A stretch of 64,000 bases of DNA from Candidatus Omnitrophota bacterium (GTDB lineage Bacteria > Omnitrophota > Gorgyraeia > Gygaellales > Profunditerraquicolaceae), in the NCBI GenBank assembly GCA_022710715.1, contig JAKLGJ010000003.1, positions 358,558 to 422,557 of the forward strand, in the 5' to 3' direction. Below are positions 16,542 through 46,899 of this stretch, piece by piece. Made by a program: the position numbers and the translations under genes. Each line of letters opens with the position of its first letter. The stretch's first letter is position 1. The notes under the pieces were generated by a model. It ran no database searches, was not told where the DNA came from, and was given only the letters and a program-made list of their open reading frames with translations.

Positions 16542-17516
16542 TTATCTTTTCCGGCCGCCGCCCCCCCCGCTTCTGGGTGCTTTGGCGGGAGGCGGATTCT
16601 TAGGCGCTTGCGCATTCTTAGCCGGTTGAGCATCCTTGACCGCCTGCCCATCCTTGACCGGCAGGATCATCTTCTGCGCAGCCGGGCTGTCTTTGATCTG
16701 CTGTTTGATCTCTTCGGCCTGCTGCGCGCGCGCGGGCTGATCTCCGCTGCGCAAAGGTCTGAACCCTTCGCCGGCGGACTGCTTGATCCGCTGCTTGAAA
16801 TCCTGGCGGTTGAAAGCCGGGCGCTGCTGCCGTTTGACCATCGCTTCGCCGCCGCGCCGGCGCACATCCTGTTTCAGCGATTGCCACTGCTGCCGCCGTA
16901 CCCCGGATACAGGCCGCATCTCTGCCGGCCGCTGGAACTTGCGCACCGTGGTCATTTGCCCGGGCTGAATGGGAGTGAACTGCTGCGAAACCTCGCCGCT
17001 GGACTCGAAATGACGCACATACGGCTGGCTGTCCACAGCTTCCACATCCGTTCCGTCCGCGGTTACTTTGGTCACCCAGTCCGTGCCTCTGGCGCCGGAA
17101 ACGGCAGTGGGAGTGCGGATCTCGAAAGAGCTTCCGCAGGACAAAGCGTTCACGGTGGCAAAAACCTCGCCGTCAGTCATTTCGAGCTTCTCATCGACGG
17201 ACAAAGTCAACCGCACCGTGGTATATTCACTCAAGCGAACAAGATTGGTATTGTCTTCGTTAAAAGCGAGCTCCGCCGAAGACGAACCGCCGGTCTTGAG
17301 CGTATCCCCGGCTTCCAGGATCATCCCCTCTTCGGCCGGAGCATATCCGTCGGCTTCTTTGAGCAAAACTTCCACCGTGCCGCTCAAACTGGTTATTTCC
17401 GCCTGCTGCGCGGTCTGCGCCCGCACAACGTCACCCGCCGGCCAACCGCCGCAGGCCGTCAATAAACCAACGAAAACACCTATCCCGCAGGATAACAAAG
17501 CCGTTTTTCTCCGCAT
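16542..17516 (-). CDS. FecR-domain lipoprotein with a long basic/Gln-rich disordered C-terminal tail
   Basis: Lipobox LLTAC. The FecR-like core is GTVEVL...G...EAGDTLKTGGSSSAELAF.D...RLSE.T...EIRTPTAVSGARGT. The C-terminal 130 aa are low-complexity (Q/R/K/P/A). Confidence 0.6.
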   Translation of the reverse strand: MRRKTALLSCGIGVFVGLLTACGGWPAGDVVRAQTAQQAEITSLSGTVEVLLKEADGYAPAEEGMILEAGDTLKTGGSSSAELAFNEDNTNLVRLSEYTTVRLTLSVDEKLEMTDGEVFATVNALSCGSSFEIRTPTAVSGARGTDWVTKVTADGTDVEAVDSQPYVRHFESSGEVSQQFTPIQPGQMTTVRKFQRPAEMRPVSGVRRQQWQSLKQDVRRRGGEAMVKRQQRPAFNRQDFKQRIKQSAGEGFRPLRSGDQPARAQQAEEIKQQIKDSPAAQKMILPVKDGQAVKDAQPAKNAQAPKNPPPAKAPRSGGGGGRKR

Positions 17517-18091: not shown

Positions 18092-19654
18092 TTAAAGCAA
18101 ATCCGTCCTGACATAATAGATCTGTCGGCCCAGAGGTTTCCGGGTATAATGCTCAAGCATAAAGCCGACCAGTCGCTTATACCCGGAGGCAGAGATCAGT
18201 TTTTTCTGATACAGCTCAAGGAGAAAGTCTTTGTGTTGATACCGGCATTGCACCACTGCCGGCCGGCGCTCCAGGACCTGCGTAACCAGATCCTGCCGGA
18301 CAACGTCATCCCGCACGATCTTGAAATTCCCGGCAAAATAATACTGCCAGGCGGAATAAAGCCTGGTAGTGTCGCGGGCAAAGATCGGATGCAACGGCAT
18401 AATGACCAGACAGGAATCCCCGGCGCAATACTGCATCAAGCGTGCGATGGTCCGCTCATCCTGGAAATAATTATCTTTATGGCACGTCCACAAATAAGCG
18501 GCGTTGGGGATCAGCAACGCACCTCCCAGTATCCCCGCCAGCAATGCGCGAGCGGATCGCGACTTCACCCGCTCCATATACGCCGGCACATCCATGGCGC
18601 AAACAGCGATGGCGCACATAAAAAACCAGAAAGACAGGTAATAGCCGGTGTTCACCGTCGAGGTGGTAGTCAACGAGCTGACCGTGCTCAAGCAGAAAGC
18701 CAGCAGAACGATCAGCGACTGATGGTCGCGGCGGCTGCGGGAACGTTGCCACAGCAGATACGCTCCCCACCCTCCGGCTGCTGCGATAAGCAGCGGAAAG
18801 ACAACCTGGAAAACCACGATCTGACGGTTGAAGCCGAACACCCAGAAGAAAAATTCCCGCAGAATCCCGCGGCTGACGAGTATGGAAACCAGCGGGACTA
18901 TCCCCGCGCATACACCGCAGATATACGCCGCGACCTTCTTCCAGCGGTCTTCGGTCCCGCCCAGAAATACGGCGAATAACGGCAGAAAGAACAGAAGGTA
19001 TTGTTTGATCATGAATGAAGCGGCCAGAGCAAACGCGATCCCGGCAAGAAAGCTCGGGGTAATCCTTTTTCCCGGAATATCCAGGCAGAACCAGACTGTC
19101 GCCAGCAAAAACAGACTCATCAGGCTATCCGGCCGCAGGCACAGGAAACGCGCAAAGATCGCCACGCTGGAAAGCGCCAGCAGATAGATCGATACTCCGG
19201 CTTGCCGGCCCCAGGCTCTGCGGGCGATCTGCCAGCCCAGAGACGCATTCGCCGCAAAGATCACTCCCTGCGCCAGACGACTGATCGGGAATACCGCTGC
19301 AGTGGCGGGTGAATGCCGGACTGCCGGCTCCAGCAGGATCCAGAAAAACGGCGAATGGTGCTGCCAGAAATCCTTAAAAGGGATCTGTCCCTGCGACATC
19401 AACCAGGCCAGATGTAAATGCACGGCTTCGTCGTGATCCAGCTGCGCGATCAACGCCCAGATCAACAGTATGCCCAGGTTAATCGCAACCAAAGGCGCCG
19501 CGGACAACGAAGCGTTTTTCCTCAAACGCGCGTATGCCCATAACCCGCAGATAGCGGCGCACACGACAAAAAAGAACAGGTTGATCGATGAACCGAAACG
19601 CACCCCTAACTCAAACAGCATAGGCTTCTCCGGGTTTGACCTGCCAGAGATCAT
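18092..19654 (-). CDS. Polytopic membrane protein, GT-C fold glycosyltransferase-like (ArnT/PMT-like)
   Basis: About 10 TM helices in the N-terminal two-thirds, plus a soluble C-terminal domain. A DHDEA motif sits in the first loop. The true start may be the Met at 19621; the ORF overlaps the upstream gene by 11-44 nt. Confidence 0.4.
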   Translation of the reverse strand: MISGRSNPEKPMLFELGVRFGSSINLFFFVVCAAICGLWAYARLRKNASLSAAPLVAINLGILLIWALIAQLDHDEAVHLHLAWLMSQGQIPFKDFWQHHSPFFWILLEPAVRHSPATAAVFPISRLAQGVIFAANASLGWQIARRAWGRQAGVSIYLLALSSVAIFARFLCLRPDSLMSLFLLATVWFCLDIPGKRITPSFLAGIAFALAASFMIKQYLLFFLPLFAVFLGGTEDRWKKVAAYICGVCAGIVPLVSILVSRGILREFFFWVFGFNRQIVVFQVVFPLLIAAAGGWGAYLLWQRSRSRRDHQSLIVLLAFCLSTVSSLTTTSTVNTGYYLSFWFFMCAIAVCAMDVPAYMERVKSRSARALLAGILGGALLIPNAAYLWTCHKDNYFQDERTIARLMQYCAGDSCLVIMPLHPIFARDTTRLYSAWQYYFAGNFKIVRDDVVRQDLVTQVLERRPAVVQCRYQHKDFLLELYQKKLISASGYKRLVGFMLEHYTRKPLGRQIYYVRTDLL

Positions 19655-44098: not shown

Positions 44099-46096
44099 TT
44101 ACCTGATGGTGCGTACCGGCCGAAAAGGATACTTCCCCTCTTTCTTGCCGGCGTAATATCCGTCGTAACCGAACTGGAAATTAACTCCCCAGCCGAACGT
44201 ATCCCCATAGGTGGTCGACGACCAGTAAAATCCCAGAGGCGCGGTTTTGGTGCCGGGGAAATAATTCTTATGGAACCAACAGCCGTCTTTAAAGGAAAGA
44301 TCCATCAGCGATCCGATTTCGCGTATCGTAGGCAACCGCCAATCCTTATACCCGGCCAGCTCCATATCCTGGCAGAATTTCATCGCTTCTTCCCAGTTCA
44401 ATTCCGGACCTTCGTCTTTTTTCCACATCAGATTGGAATTAAGATCCGTGACCGTACCGTCGCCGTTATCTTTGAAATCATAGGCGTTGATGATCCCGAA
44501 ACGCCTGCTGTAGCCGCCTCTCACCGCGCGCACCGGATAATAGGAGGTTTTCAAATAGCAGATCGCGCAGCCATAAGCAAAATAAACGCCCCAGCCGAAT
44601 ATCGGCTCTTTAACGTCGGAATCTTTGGACCAGTAGAATGCCGGCAGGCAATCCAGGAAGAATTTCGGGTCGCAAGCCGGGATCTGTCCGTTGTAATCCA
44701 CGATCATGCGCAGCTCTTCGCGGGAAGGCAGCCGCCAGTCGCGAAAACCGCCGAAATTTTTTTTGTTGAGTTCTTTGACGTAGGTAAAAGCGTCTTCCCA
44801 GGTATAGCTGTCGCCGCCGAAATTAACGTCATGCGCTGCCGGTGACTTGACCTCCCAGATCAGGCCGGTATTGTTATCTTTGACCATGCGCCAGCCTTTT
44901 TCCCAGGTAGCTTTGTCCGAAAGCAGCCGTCCCTCTGTCCCCAGCTTGCTGAAAGATAACGGATAGATACTGTAAGAACCATCCTGCCCGAAATAACGCT
45001 CGCCGGGTTTGGGCGCTTTGATAATATCGCCGTTCTCGGTATAACAGCGCTTCTGGCCGGAATCCGGGAATTTGAACTTCACCTCCTGCGCAGCCGCGGG
45101 CTTGTTCACGTTGCGCACTGCCCGGAAAAGAAGCTTGGCGTTCTTGGAAGCGTAATACCCGTCGTAGCCGAAACAGAAATTAGTCACCCAGACATAAATG
45201 CCTTCATAAGGAGTCGAGGAGAAATAATGCAAAAGCGGCGGCTTCAATCCGTCCGCCGGAAAGAAATCCTTGAAATACCACCAGCCGTTGGTGTAATCGA
45301 GGTTCAAAATGGTGTTCAATTCTTTGAGATTGGGCATGCGCCAGTCGTCGTGGCCGGCTAAACGCATTTCGCGGCACACTTTCAGCGCCGCATACCAGTC
45401 CATGCGTTCGTTCTCGCCCTTCTGCCACATCAGGCCGGTAATGCCGTCGGTGATCGTGCCGTCGCCGTTATCCTTGAAACGCGAAGGATCAGCCACTCCA
45501 TACTTACGATTCGCTCCTCCCCTGACTGCGCGCACAAACCGTTCGCTCGACGGCGTATAGCAAATGCCGCTGCCCAAGCCGAAGAACAATCCCCAGATAA
45601 AAGGCTTCTGCATATTATACGGATTAGCCGTCCAGTACAGATCGCTCTGGGTATTGGGAAAATAATTCAAGTCAACCGCCGGATTCGTGCGGCCGTAATC
45701 CAGGATAGTGCGCAGTTCGTCTTTATTGGGCATGCGCCAGTCGGAAAAACCGCTGTACTTGGCCTTGTTGAGCTTCTTGATGTAGGCGTCGCCGGCCTTT
45801 TTCCAGGAATAACGATCCGCGGTATAATTGACATCGCCTTTTTTGGGAGATTTAACTTCCCAGACCAGGCCAGTATTGTTGTCCAGCACGCAGCGCAGCC
45901 CGTCTTTCCACTCTGCTGCGTCTTCAAGCACCTTCCCGGCCTTGCCCAGCTTGGTAAACGACATGGGATTGACCGTGAAGCACCCATTCTGTCCCCAGAG
46001 TTCATCCCCGGGCTTGACCTCGATCTCCAGCCCCTGCTTATCGAAACATTTGATCGCGCCGGCATCCGGCATCCTGAACACTTTGGATTCTTTCAT
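44099..46096 (-). CDS. DUF1566 (Lcl C-terminal-like) repeat protein, four tandem repeats of about 165 aa
   Basis: Start taken at MKESKVF (ATG at 46094-46096, with AGGAGG 5 nt upstream). Each repeat contains W..A...C.....GY.DWR[LM]P...EL..I: SDWRMPNKDEL, DDWRMPNLKEL, RDWRLPSREEL and KDWRLPTIREI. Confidence 0.7.
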   Translation of the reverse strand: MKESKVFRMPDAGAIKCFDKQGLEIEVKPGDELWGQNGCFTVNPMSFTKLGKAGKVLEDAAEWKDGLRCVLDNNTGLVWEVKSPKKGDVNYTADRYSWKKAGDAYIKKLNKAKYSGFSDWRMPNKDELRTILDYGRTNPAVDLNYFPNTQSDLYWTANPYNMQKPFIWGLFFGLGSGICYTPSSERFVRAVRGGANRKYGVADPSRFKDNGDGTITDGITGLMWQKGENERMDWYAALKVCREMRLAGHDDWRMPNLKELNTILNLDYTNGWWYFKDFFPADGLKPPLLHYFSSTPYEGIYVWVTNFCFGYDGYYASKNAKLLFRAVRNVNKPAAAQEVKFKFPDSGQKRCYTENGDIIKAPKPGERYFGQDGSYSIYPLSFSKLGTEGRLLSDKATWEKGWRMVKDNNTGLIWEVKSPAAHDVNFGGDSYTWEDAFTYVKELNKKNFGGFRDWRLPSREELRMIVDYNGQIPACDPKFFLDCLPAFYWSKDSDVKEPIFGWGVYFAYGCAICYLKTSYYPVRAVRGGYSRRFGIINAYDFKDNGDGTVTDLNSNLMWKKDEGPELNWEEAMKFCQDMELAGYKDWRLPTIREIGSLMDLSFKDGCWFHKNYFPGTKTAPLGFYWSSTTYGDTFGWGVNFQFGYDGYYAGKKEGKYPFRPVRTIR

Positions 46097-46112
46097 AGAA
46101 CCTCCTGAACAT

Positions 46113-46144
46113 GTCATTGCGAGCCCCGCAGGGGCGAAGCAATC
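46113..46144. repeat. Left flanking nested-hairpin repeat of the GIY-YIG cassette (gtcattgcgag-ccccgcagggg-cgaagcaatc)
   Basis: The unit is itself a hairpin: outer arms attgc/gcaat and inner arms gcccc/ggggc. It is an imperfect inverted repeat of 46438..46475. Confidence 0.7.
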
Positions 46145-46431
46145 TACAATTTCTTATACAAATCCTCGAATTGCGGATTCATCTGGGCGATCAAATCAAG
46201 TTTCTTTTGCCTCGATCCACCCTTGATCTGCTTTTCCCGGGTAATTGCCTCGTAGATGTCATCAAATACTTCATAAAAAACCAGTTTGGTCACGTTATAC
46301 TTTTTAGTAAAACCTTCAAATTTTTTCTCTTTGTGTTCATATACCCTTTTTTTCAAGTCGCTGGTTACGCCGGTATAGAATACCTTATTATTCCAGTTAG
46401 TCAGGATATACACACAACCTTGCTTTTCCAT
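46144..46431 (-). CDS. Small GIY-YIG nuclease-domain protein (COG2827-like)
   Basis: 95 aa. GIY-YIG core CVYILTNWNNKVFYTGVTSDLKKRVYEH ... with a conserved Arg and Glu (EAITREKQIKG). Confidence 0.8.
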   Translation of the reverse strand: MEKQGCVYILTNWNNKVFYTGVTSDLKKRVYEHKEKKFEGFTKKYNVTKLVFYEVFDDIYEAITREKQIKGGSRQKKLDLIAQMNPQFEDLYKKL

Positions 46432-46437
46432 GCTTCA

Positions 46438-46475
46438 GATTGCTTCGTCGCCCCTTCGGGGCTCCTCGCAATGAC
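46438..46475. repeat. Right flanking nested-hairpin repeat of the GIY-YIG cassette (gattgcttcg-tcgccccttcggggctcctcgcaatgac), plus a further partial copy tcgcaatgac at 46490-46499
   Basis: The reverse complement of the left repeat, with indels. It has its own inner hairpin gcccc-ttc-ggggc. Confidence 0.7.
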
Positions 46476-46503
46476 TTTGACTTTGCTCATCGCAATGACG
46501 ATT

Positions 46504-46899
46504 TCACGATTCCATCAGTTCGACCAGATTTCCATCCGGATCTTTGAGGAAGAAATACTTTCTGCCGTCGGCAAAGACGCGCAGGTCCGTGGCTAAACCC
46601 ACGCGCGCTTGCTTGAATTTCTTGAAAGCGGCTTCGATATTTCCGGTTTCCAGGGAAAAATGTTTGACGCCGAGGGTATGCAGATCATTATCCAGCGTCT
46701 TTCTGTACTGCGGCAGCGGTTTGCGCTTCTTGAACTCGAAAAGCTCCAGGGTCATATCTTTATTCTTGAGCAGGACGATGGTCATGCCTTTATCTTTGAA
46801 GCTGTAGCGTTTGCTCACGCGCAATCCAAAGTGCTTCTTGTAGAAAGCCGCGGATCGAGCAATATTCGCAACGCTTAAAGCTATGTGTCCAAGTTTCAT
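46504..46899 (-). CDS. VOC-family (glyoxalase/bleomycin-resistance/dioxygenase fold) protein
   Basis: Start taken at MKLGHIALSVANIARSAAFYKKHFGL. The fold ends DPDGNLVELME. The 5' extension in the ORF track is rejected. Confidence 0.7.
   Translation of the reverse strand: MKLGHIALSVANIARSAAFYKKHFGLRVSKRYSFKDKGMTIVLLKNKDMTLELFEFKKRKPLPQYRKTLDNDLHTLGVKHFSLETGNIEAAFKKFKQARVGLATDLRVFADGRKYFFLKDPDGNLVELMES

Follow-up and report, generated by a model that had tools for sequence, protein, structure and literature searches.

A 64-kb stretch of DNA from a Candidatus Omnitrophota metagenome assembly (64,000 nucleotides, hereafter the window) carries a small gene for a predicted single-domain GIY-YIG nuclease that lies between two inverted hairpin repeats. 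Gene and repeats form a compact cassette in the spacer between a glyoxalase/VOC-family gene and a gene for an Lcl_C (formerly DUF1566) repeat protein; the three genes lie on the minus strand (Table 1). The coordinates that a preliminary description, made from the letters alone, had given for the open reading frame (ORF) and for both repeats all hold. The annotation of a Candidatus Omnitrophota metagenome-assembled genome includes an identical GIY-YIG protein, which is also encoded on the 1.62-Mb JGI contig Ga0116241_10000002 of 3300010429.

The cassette runs from 4 nt past the glyoxalase stop codon to 6 nt short of the Lcl_C ribosome-binding site (RBS; AGGAGG, 46101-46106), and it leaves both host genes undisrupted. 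The longest Lcl_C ORF begins at 46117, within the downstream repeat, and the starts of orthologues align with the position of MKESKVF (ATG 46096). Together with the AGGAGG motif, these starts place the repeat upstream of the Lcl_C gene and not within it, as the preliminary description had proposed for the true start of this gene. Its statement that the cassette was inserted at the exact 5′ end of the gene calls for a finer reading: the cassette fills an intergenic spacer and the gene is intact. The final base of the downstream repeat is also the final base of the GIY-YIG gene's TAG stop. The borders read GAAATC before the cassette and ATGTTC after it, with no direct duplication visible there.

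The nuclease and its flanking repeats

Both full repeats are built on one plan, in which a 5′ end of a pyrimidine and GTCATT, an outer stem TGCGAG/CGAAGCA and a 3′ AATC are conserved and the inner hairpin is variable. The downstream (left) copy reads GTCATTGCGAGCCCCGCAGGGGCGAAGCAATC on the plus strand and the upstream (right) copy GTCATTGCGAGGAGCCCCGAAGGGGCGACGAAGCAATC on the minus strand. A repeat search returned their outer arms, of 11 nt and 10/11 nt, as perfect inverted repeats and an inner pair of 17-nt arms that is 94% complementary. The window has two matches to the composite pattern ATTGCGAG-N4-30-GAAGCAAT, where 100 shuffles lead one to expect 0.00. Folded as single-stranded DNA (ssDNA), both copies adopt the nested double hairpin that had been read from them in the preliminary description: an outer stem ATTGC/GCAAT, an internal loop and an inner stem GCCCC/GGGGC. 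The GTCATT and AATC ends look single-stranded. Folding energies are -9.1 kcal/mol for the left copy (z=-2.7) and -7.0 kcal/mol for the right copy (z=-1.4), so the thermodynamic support alone is modest.

Outside the full upstream repeat, at a distance of 24 nt from start to start, lies an orphan 5′ half-site. This third fragment, which the preliminary description had also noticed, is real: positions 46485-46499 are 93% identical to 46461-46475. Composite searches with up to 2 mismatches found no further copies of the repeat beyond chance in the window. Two half-sites with 1 mismatch, at 17004 and 17176, were rejected as repeat copies; they lie within a 324-aa coding sequence and are at chance level. 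The inner stem GCCCC/GGGGC is common to both cassette ends (46124-46134 and 46449-46461), with different loops (GCA and GAAG), and in the other five cassettes examined the inner hairpins of the two ends are unrelated. The shared stem could stem from a recent duplication or from gene conversion between the ends.

The 95-aa protein matches PF01541 over residues 5-77 and no other Pfam domain. Residues Y8, Y19, R29 and E66, at the catalytic positions, are invariant in 32 homologues. A protein of this kind is known from Neisseria meningitidis: SsnA (NMV_0044/NMB0047) has 94 aa, consists of a single GIY-YIG domain (CDD cd10448), and binds and cuts ssDNA only, strand-specifically, a few nt 5′ of the NTS hairpin repeat CGTCATTCCCGCGMAVGCGGGAATCYRG (Chenal et al., Nat Commun 2025, PMC11893778). 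Its catalytic residues Y6, Y17 and E64 were established by mutagenesis (PMC11893778). Homologues of ssnA in many phyla are flanked on both sides by such repeats, called ‘Ssn-related motifs’ (SRM), and four Ssn homologues have been shown directly to bind and cleave the repeats beside their own genes (PMC11893778). The same authors predicted co-evolution of protein and repeat, and raised the likeness of NTS-ssnA-NTS to an insertion sequence as a hypothesis only (PMC11893778).

In the window protein, Y8, Y19 and E66 are spaced as Y6, Y17 and E64 are in SsnA (11 and 47 residues; PMC11893778). GIY-YIG genes beside exact NTS repeats, obtained by scanning IMG/VR with the NTS consensus, served as stand-ins for the Neisseria SsnA sequence. 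Four such proteins (from L200, L225, L147 and L258) are 39-46% identical to the window protein over the full length, and the catalytic residues of the NTS-flanked proteins align with Y8, Y19 and E66. L200 has NTS on both sides of its gene, and L225, L147 and L258 are similar. When the NTS-flanked proteins were searched against the window by tblastn, they matched the cassette gene with E=1e-15 to 4e-24 and revealed no second GIY-YIG gene in the 64 kb. NTS-type cassettes are laid out like that of the window: the repeat upstream has the sense of the gene, and the one downstream is inverted and lies 0-25 nt past the stop codon. The two window repeats, of 38 and 32 nt, are within the SRM size of 20-50 nt.

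A search of PDB sequences gave a sole and weak match, to the UPF0213 protein BH0048 (1zg2; E=3e-5, 27 bits). UPF0213/YhbQ-type proteins have a similar length and the GIY-YIG fold, and the similarity of BH0048 to the window protein is much weaker than that of the NTS-flanked Ssn proteins. We know of no association of the UPF0213/YhbQ-type group with repeats. The family placement by proxy follows from this difference, 39-46% identity to NTS-flanked proteins against 27 bits to BH0048. On these comparisons the locus is very probably an Ssn/SRM module, that is, an architecture of the NTS-ssnA-NTS type in which an Ssn-family protein is accompanied by its own cognate repeats.

The kind of element is thus already published (2025, PMC11893778), and what the locus appears to add is a new repeat and specificity class and, measured against the paper's main text, a new phylum. 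Our literature search found no later paper on Ssn, and a full-text search with the repeat sequence returned only unrelated primer matches. The cassette has in common with NTS-ssnA-NTS a single-domain GIY-YIG protein of ~95 aa with identical Tyr/Tyr/Glu spacing; inverted hairpin repeats on both sides, with a (C)GTCATT start, an AATC(YRG) end and the upstream copy in the gene's sense; and a repeat that is also dispersed in genomes (PMC11893778). The frame common to the repeats of both systems is a pyrimidine, GTCATT, a stem, a loop, the second stem arm and AATC. In 66 of 171 copies from other genomes AATC continues with CAG, which fits the YRG of NTS.

Within this common frame the two systems differ. 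The stem of the window class is TGCGAG/CGAAGCA, with an extra and variable inner hairpin, whereas that of NTS is TCCCGCG/CGCGGGA. The C-terminal motif of the protein is IKGGSRQKK here and KKWxRAWK in the Neisseria SsnA type. The host here is known as a Candidatus Omnitrophota metagenome assembly, with no dispersed copies in 64 kb against hundreds in Neisseria, and direct empty-site evidence of whole-unit insertion is available here. The alignment of homologues shows that stem and protein change together: a KKWxRAWKLxLIE subfamily pairs with the NTS-type stem TCCCGCG, and an IK(G/A)GSRxKKxxLI (IKGGSRQKK-type) subfamily with TGCGAG/CGAAGCA. Since the repeat stem co-varies with the protein subfamily, the locus is placed as a predicted new specificity class within the known Ssn family.

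A profile-based scan revealed further Ssn subtypes, with repeats that start GTCATCCC or GTCACCCCGG. When viral contigs were searched with a single protein, 2 loci were found; with the alignment, 22 loci were found, every one of another Ssn subtype. Two contigs (L406 and L407, ~1501-1766) hold an Ssn homologue of the GTCATCCCAGC-repeat subtype with an apparent frameshift after its REK motif (…AIREKSRSRRGSAPGRSSCSGT), probably a decaying copy that its repeats still flank.

Table 1. Coordinates of the cassette, its parts and its neighbours in the window, and of homologous cassettes (the last three rows are numbered within their own loci)
Feature	Position	Strand or orientation	Description
ssn-type gene	46144..46431	-	95 aa, single-domain GIY-YIG nuclease (predicted); Pfam PF01541 E=5e-18
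Upstream SRM-like repeat, 38 nt	46438..46475	- (gene's sense)	GTCATTGCGAG-GAGCCCCGAAGGGGCGA-CGAAGCAATC; ends 6 nt before ATG
Downstream SRM-like repeat, 32 nt	46113..46144	+ (inverted relative to gene)	GTCATTGCGAG-CCCCGCAGGGG-CGAAGCAATC
Orphan third copy, truncated	46476..46499	-	GTCATTGCGAT-GAGCAAAGTCAAA
Whole cassette, 387 bp	46113..46499	GTCATT ends outward	insertion relative to related genomes
Glyoxalase/VOC-family host gene, upstream	46504..46899	-	131 aa; Pfam PF00903 E=2e-18; gene call in L121
Lcl_C (formerly DUF1566) repeat protein, downstream host gene	44099..46096	-	665 aa; Pfam PF07603 E=2e-110
Homologous cassette, L125	2001-2288	operon direction	queA/tgt
Homologous cassette, L128	2001-2288	operon direction	uvrB/uvrA
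Homologous cassette, L129	2001-2291	operon direction	atpA/atpG; Omnitrophica metagenome-assembled genome

Empty sites and homologous cassettes

A metagenome search with the Lcl_C protein recovered 15 related loci, whose Lcl_C proteins are 49-89% identical to that of the window and in which the order TPP enzyme, glyoxalase, Lcl_C, DJ-1 is kept in full or in part. None of the 15 has a GIY-YIG gene or a repeat half-site at the glyoxalase/Lcl_C junction, and the junction itself is kept wherever it is spanned. In L132-L135, L139, L140 and L145, ~5-50 nt separate the glyoxalase stop codon from the Lcl_C RBS or start. Since relatives with the same gene order have neither gene nor repeats, we read the cassette as an insertion; by parsimony, one gain in the lineage of the window is strongly preferred over a series of independent losses. 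The cassette thus appears to have been inserted into a short glyoxalase/Lcl_C spacer, co-directionally with both genes.

The same spacer holds unrelated small genes in some relatives: a 166-aa unrelated ORF in L131 (2504-3004), and a 114-aa predicted membrane protein in L144 (2628-2972) and L142 (~1755-2100). These point to a variable slot that is tolerant of insertions. L135, a relative without the cassette and with an Lcl_C protein 79% identical to that of the window, has a single copy of the repeat, GTCATTGCGAGGACAGCGAAGCAAGACGAAGCAATC, at 756-795, a short way upstream of the gene for its TPP enzyme; at the equivalent position the window has no repeat, so solo repeats are also polymorphic among Omnitrophota relatives.

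Homologous cassettes, with 68-73% protein identity and the same repeat class on both sides, sit in conserved gene pairs elsewhere (L125, L128 and L129 in Table 1), and in all three the neighbours' stop codon and RBS are intact. Repeats of the same class flank both sides in 5/5 of the homologous cassettes fetched with their DNA. Their distance to the gene varies: in L125 and L129 repeat and stop codon adjoin, and the repeat lies 5-20 nt further downstream in L128 and L130. The called product of L130 (2001-2321; 106 aa) begins at a TTG within the upstream repeat, and annotated N-terminal extensions of such mini-genes can be repeat read-through. In addition, ~60 nt of the flank upstream recur in the downstream region of L130, suggesting elements in tandem or nested in each other.

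Dispersed and paired copies of the repeat

The exact pattern GTCATTGCGAG-N4-30-CGAAGCAATC, with 21 conserved bases, occurs at at least 120 loci in GTDB species genomes and at at least 120 loci in IMG/VR. The GTDB hosts among the matches listed belong to Alpha-, Gamma- and Deltaproteobacteria, Chloroflexota, Bacteroidota, Patescibacteria, Cyanobacteria, Planctomycetota, Zixibacteria, Firmicutes and other phyla; Sporomusa, Helicobacter, Bradyrhizobium and Sphingomonas are among them. Between the conserved halves, 176 distinct versions of the variable segment were counted in 354 copies, the shortest being CGAAG. Longer inner segments tend to be palindromes: a stem of >=4 bp is found in 42% of them, against 17% when shuffled (135 distinct inserts). 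This inner-hairpin signal is real but modest.

The repeat is mostly found singly or in REPIN-like pairs. Among 76 pairs of adjacent copies, 50 have their GTCATT ends outward, most with a spacer of 20-32 nt, and 7 have the opposite geometry. Across many phyla the usual form of such a doublet is GTCATT...AATC-CAG-(~20 nt)-CTG-GATT...AATGAC (for example L062, 472-555 and 2859-2944; L041, 3703-3793 and 5977-6067; L308, 8663-8738), and the partners are often a short copy of 26 nt and a long one of 32 nt. The doublets look like REPINs, and their geometry is that of the cassette with a short spacer in place of the ORF. No target-site duplication is visible at the 50 doublets.

The orphan half-site of the window (46476-46499) also has counterparts. 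Of 354 copies, 16 are preceded at 24-27 nt by such a ‘stuttered’ 5′ half-site, GTCATTGCGA(G), where chance would give an estimated ~0.5; further examples are in L007, L271, L301 and L117, and L061 has a similar duplicated outer end on the other side of its gene. Such a half-site could be the scar of a nested insertion or a second binding site. The GTCATT end shows no preference for gene starts or RBS: among 298 copies, 80 gene starts are found past the GTCATT end and 75 past the AATC end. Just positions -1 and -2 show a bias, toward pyrimidines.

Possible mobility and its alternatives

In the mechanism that we propose, the protein would recognise the GTCATT...AATC strand of each flanking repeat when it is single-stranded and would nick the plus strand around 46110 and the minus strand around 46478. 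Both predicted cut sites are just outside the cassette because its two repeats are inverted, with their GTCATT ends outward. The 387-bp unit, an insertion, looks like a compact selfish or REP/RAYT-like module, and the nuclease itself may promote the spread of the cassette or of the repeats. Two other routes may be envisaged: host repair could carry a homing-like or REP/RAYT-like process, or the module could serve the host, as has been proposed in Neisseria for transformation. Since GIY-YIG nucleases of the hydrolytic type are unable to religate DNA, spread of a transpositional kind would call for host functions. The strongest version of this proposal is that the SRM-ssn-SRM unit is an autonomous mobile element, in which the ssDNA-specific nuclease, with host repair or replication, drives the insertion of cassettes and doublets into intergenic spacers. 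We put it forward tentatively, as a possibility with the odds rather against it. If true, it would account for the 21 identical bases of the repeat in more than ten phyla, for the cassettes at atpA/atpG, queA/tgt and uvrB/uvrA, and for the gain at the Omnitrophota glyoxalase/Lcl_C junction.

Besides the lack of a rejoining activity, several observations speak against the assignment to the Ssn/SRM family or against mobility. The published degenerate SRM search sequence, HGTCWYN(0-2)YYVSBRHN(0-5)WNVSBRGN(0-2)RNCYNB, was assembled by hand on the basis of 29 genomes (PMC11893778), is meant for searching and does not define the motif; it matches 0/3 local copies and 0/171 copies elsewhere. The mismatch sits in the YY(V)(S) stem positions, and the GTCWY start and the 3′ end fit. 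With no dispersed copies in the window, a host-level role as proposed in Neisseria is without a visible substrate in the 64 kb. A GIY-YIG gene lies within 8 kb at only 3 of 120 genome repeat loci among the matches listed, from which it follows that most copies are dispersed and not beside a nuclease gene; of those three, L061 has repeats on either side of its gene and L120 an exact copy upstream. All 11 contigs with the identical protein show the same context, with no sign of recent movement within the population. Finally, neither a target-site duplication nor an excision product was seen, the comparison being with relatives and not with the lineage's own pre-insertion sequence. The one match to the SRM pattern in the window, TGTCTTTCCGCTGCTTATCGCAGCAGCCGG at 18774-18803 (-), is inside a 520-aa ORF and is taken as chance (1 match against 0.68 expected from shuffles).

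Three other explanations of the locus were weighed. Three co-directional minus-strand genes with hairpins in their intergenic spacers, both strands of each hairpin being foldable, could be read as a resident gene among transcription terminators or RNA-level stabilisers or attenuators. However, a terminator scan was negative at both repeats, where the stems are followed by AATCTAC and AATCTGA and not by a T-run, and Rfam at gathering thresholds has no match in the whole window. The most conserved parts of the repeat are its non-paired GTCATT and AATC ends, identical across phyla, which an RNA hairpin would not need; relatives lack both gene and hairpins at the junction, and SsnA binds no RNA (PMC11893778). 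We regard this explanation as extremely unlikely. The catalytic domain and the presence/absence polymorphism would also suit a free-standing homing endonuclease of the I-TevI/Seg type, which would cut double-stranded DNA at the empty site and spread by recombinational repair. The protein's sole NCBIfam match, to TIGR01453 (group I intron endonuclease), points weakly the same way, but it scores 22.2 bits against a cut-off of 56.05 and covers residues 5-40 only. Moreover, homing GIY-YIG enzymes require a DNA-binding domain (PMC11893778), which the 95-aa protein does not have, and homologous cassettes lie in unrelated genes (atp, queA/tgt, uvrBA) with no single conserved target. Nor are homing endonuclease genes bracketed by inverted hairpin repeats that are also present as hundreds of solo copies, and homing in this sense is very unlikely.

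The fixed 20-32 nt spacers of the doublets are strongly REPIN-like, and most copies are far from any GIY-YIG gene; both facts would fit REP/REPIN- or MITE-like repeats moved by a RAYT or an IS200/IS605 Y1 transposase, the GIY-YIG gene then being a passenger or a resident of a repeat-rich spot. Against this stand the co-variation of the repeat stem with the GIY-YIG subfamily, the bracketing of all five homologous cassettes by repeats, with the stop codon abutted in three cassettes including that of the window, and the binding and cleavage of their own flanking repeats by four Ssn homologues (PMC11893778). Between the repeats there is no Y1 transposase, the GIY-YIG ORF being the sole gene; the rest of the window was not scanned for Y1 genes. 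A Y1-driven origin seems improbable to us.

The likeness to such systems is nonetheless instructive. As far as the accounts cited in PMC11893778 go (Nunvar 2010; Ton-Hoang 2012), REP/REPIN-RAYT systems likewise have a single enzyme gene between inverted short hairpin repeats, dispersed intergenic singlets and inverted doublets with a fixed short spacer, and a presumed recognition of ssDNA. The enzyme differs, being a predicted hydrolytic GIY-YIG nuclease here and in the RAYT accounts an HUH Y1 transposase, which forms a covalent intermediate and can rejoin DNA. Inheritance is, by the same accounts, usually vertical for RAYTs, whereas here there is insertion polymorphism, with homologous cassettes inside housekeeping operons. 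With IS200/IS605 elements the cassette has in common its small size, subterminal hairpins (recognised as ssDNA in those elements), the lack of a visible target duplication at the ends and a repeat-gene-repeat layout; the ends of IS200/IS605, in contrast, are not mutual inverted copies, and TnpA (Y1) cuts them on one and the same strand, while the repeats here are inverted. Terminal inverted repeats, as in MITEs and classical insertion sequences, are present here.

We therefore return to the Ssn/SRM module. The preliminary description had seen in the locus a small mobile or selfish-looking GIY-YIG cassette with structured termini, and had named as contrary findings a repeat that occurs nowhere else and a gene conserved in relatives. 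The repeat is present at the many GTDB and IMG/VR loci given above, and the comparison with relatives that it had called for found gene and repeats absent at the glyoxalase/Lcl_C junctions of the related loci recovered (n=15). Its view is supported to the extent that the cassette is a mobile-looking unit of an already published kind, with a putative mode of movement.

Ssn enzymes are under development as ssDNA tools, and they are, to our knowledge, the only known site-specific nucleases that cut ssDNA exclusively. Any further pair of protein and repeat could supply such tools with a new specificity. The present locus defines a predicted pair of an IKGGSRQKK-type Ssn and GTCATTGCGAG...CGAAGCAATC that extends over many phyla and is missed by the published search pattern. 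For genome annotation, the pair would explain very common mini-genes called ‘GIY-YIG nuclease family protein’, and junk ORFs that are read through the repeats. The additions to the published picture are a repeat class that the published pattern does not find, the REPIN-like doublets, and the empty sites and operon insertions, which speak for mobility of the unit as a whole. We know of no earlier direct comparative evidence of this kind for mobility resembling that of an insertion sequence. The comparison of filled with empty sites, together with the cassettes in operons, bears on the question raised with the discovery of SsnA, of whether NTS-ssnA-NTS is mobile now or was so formerly (PMC11893778).

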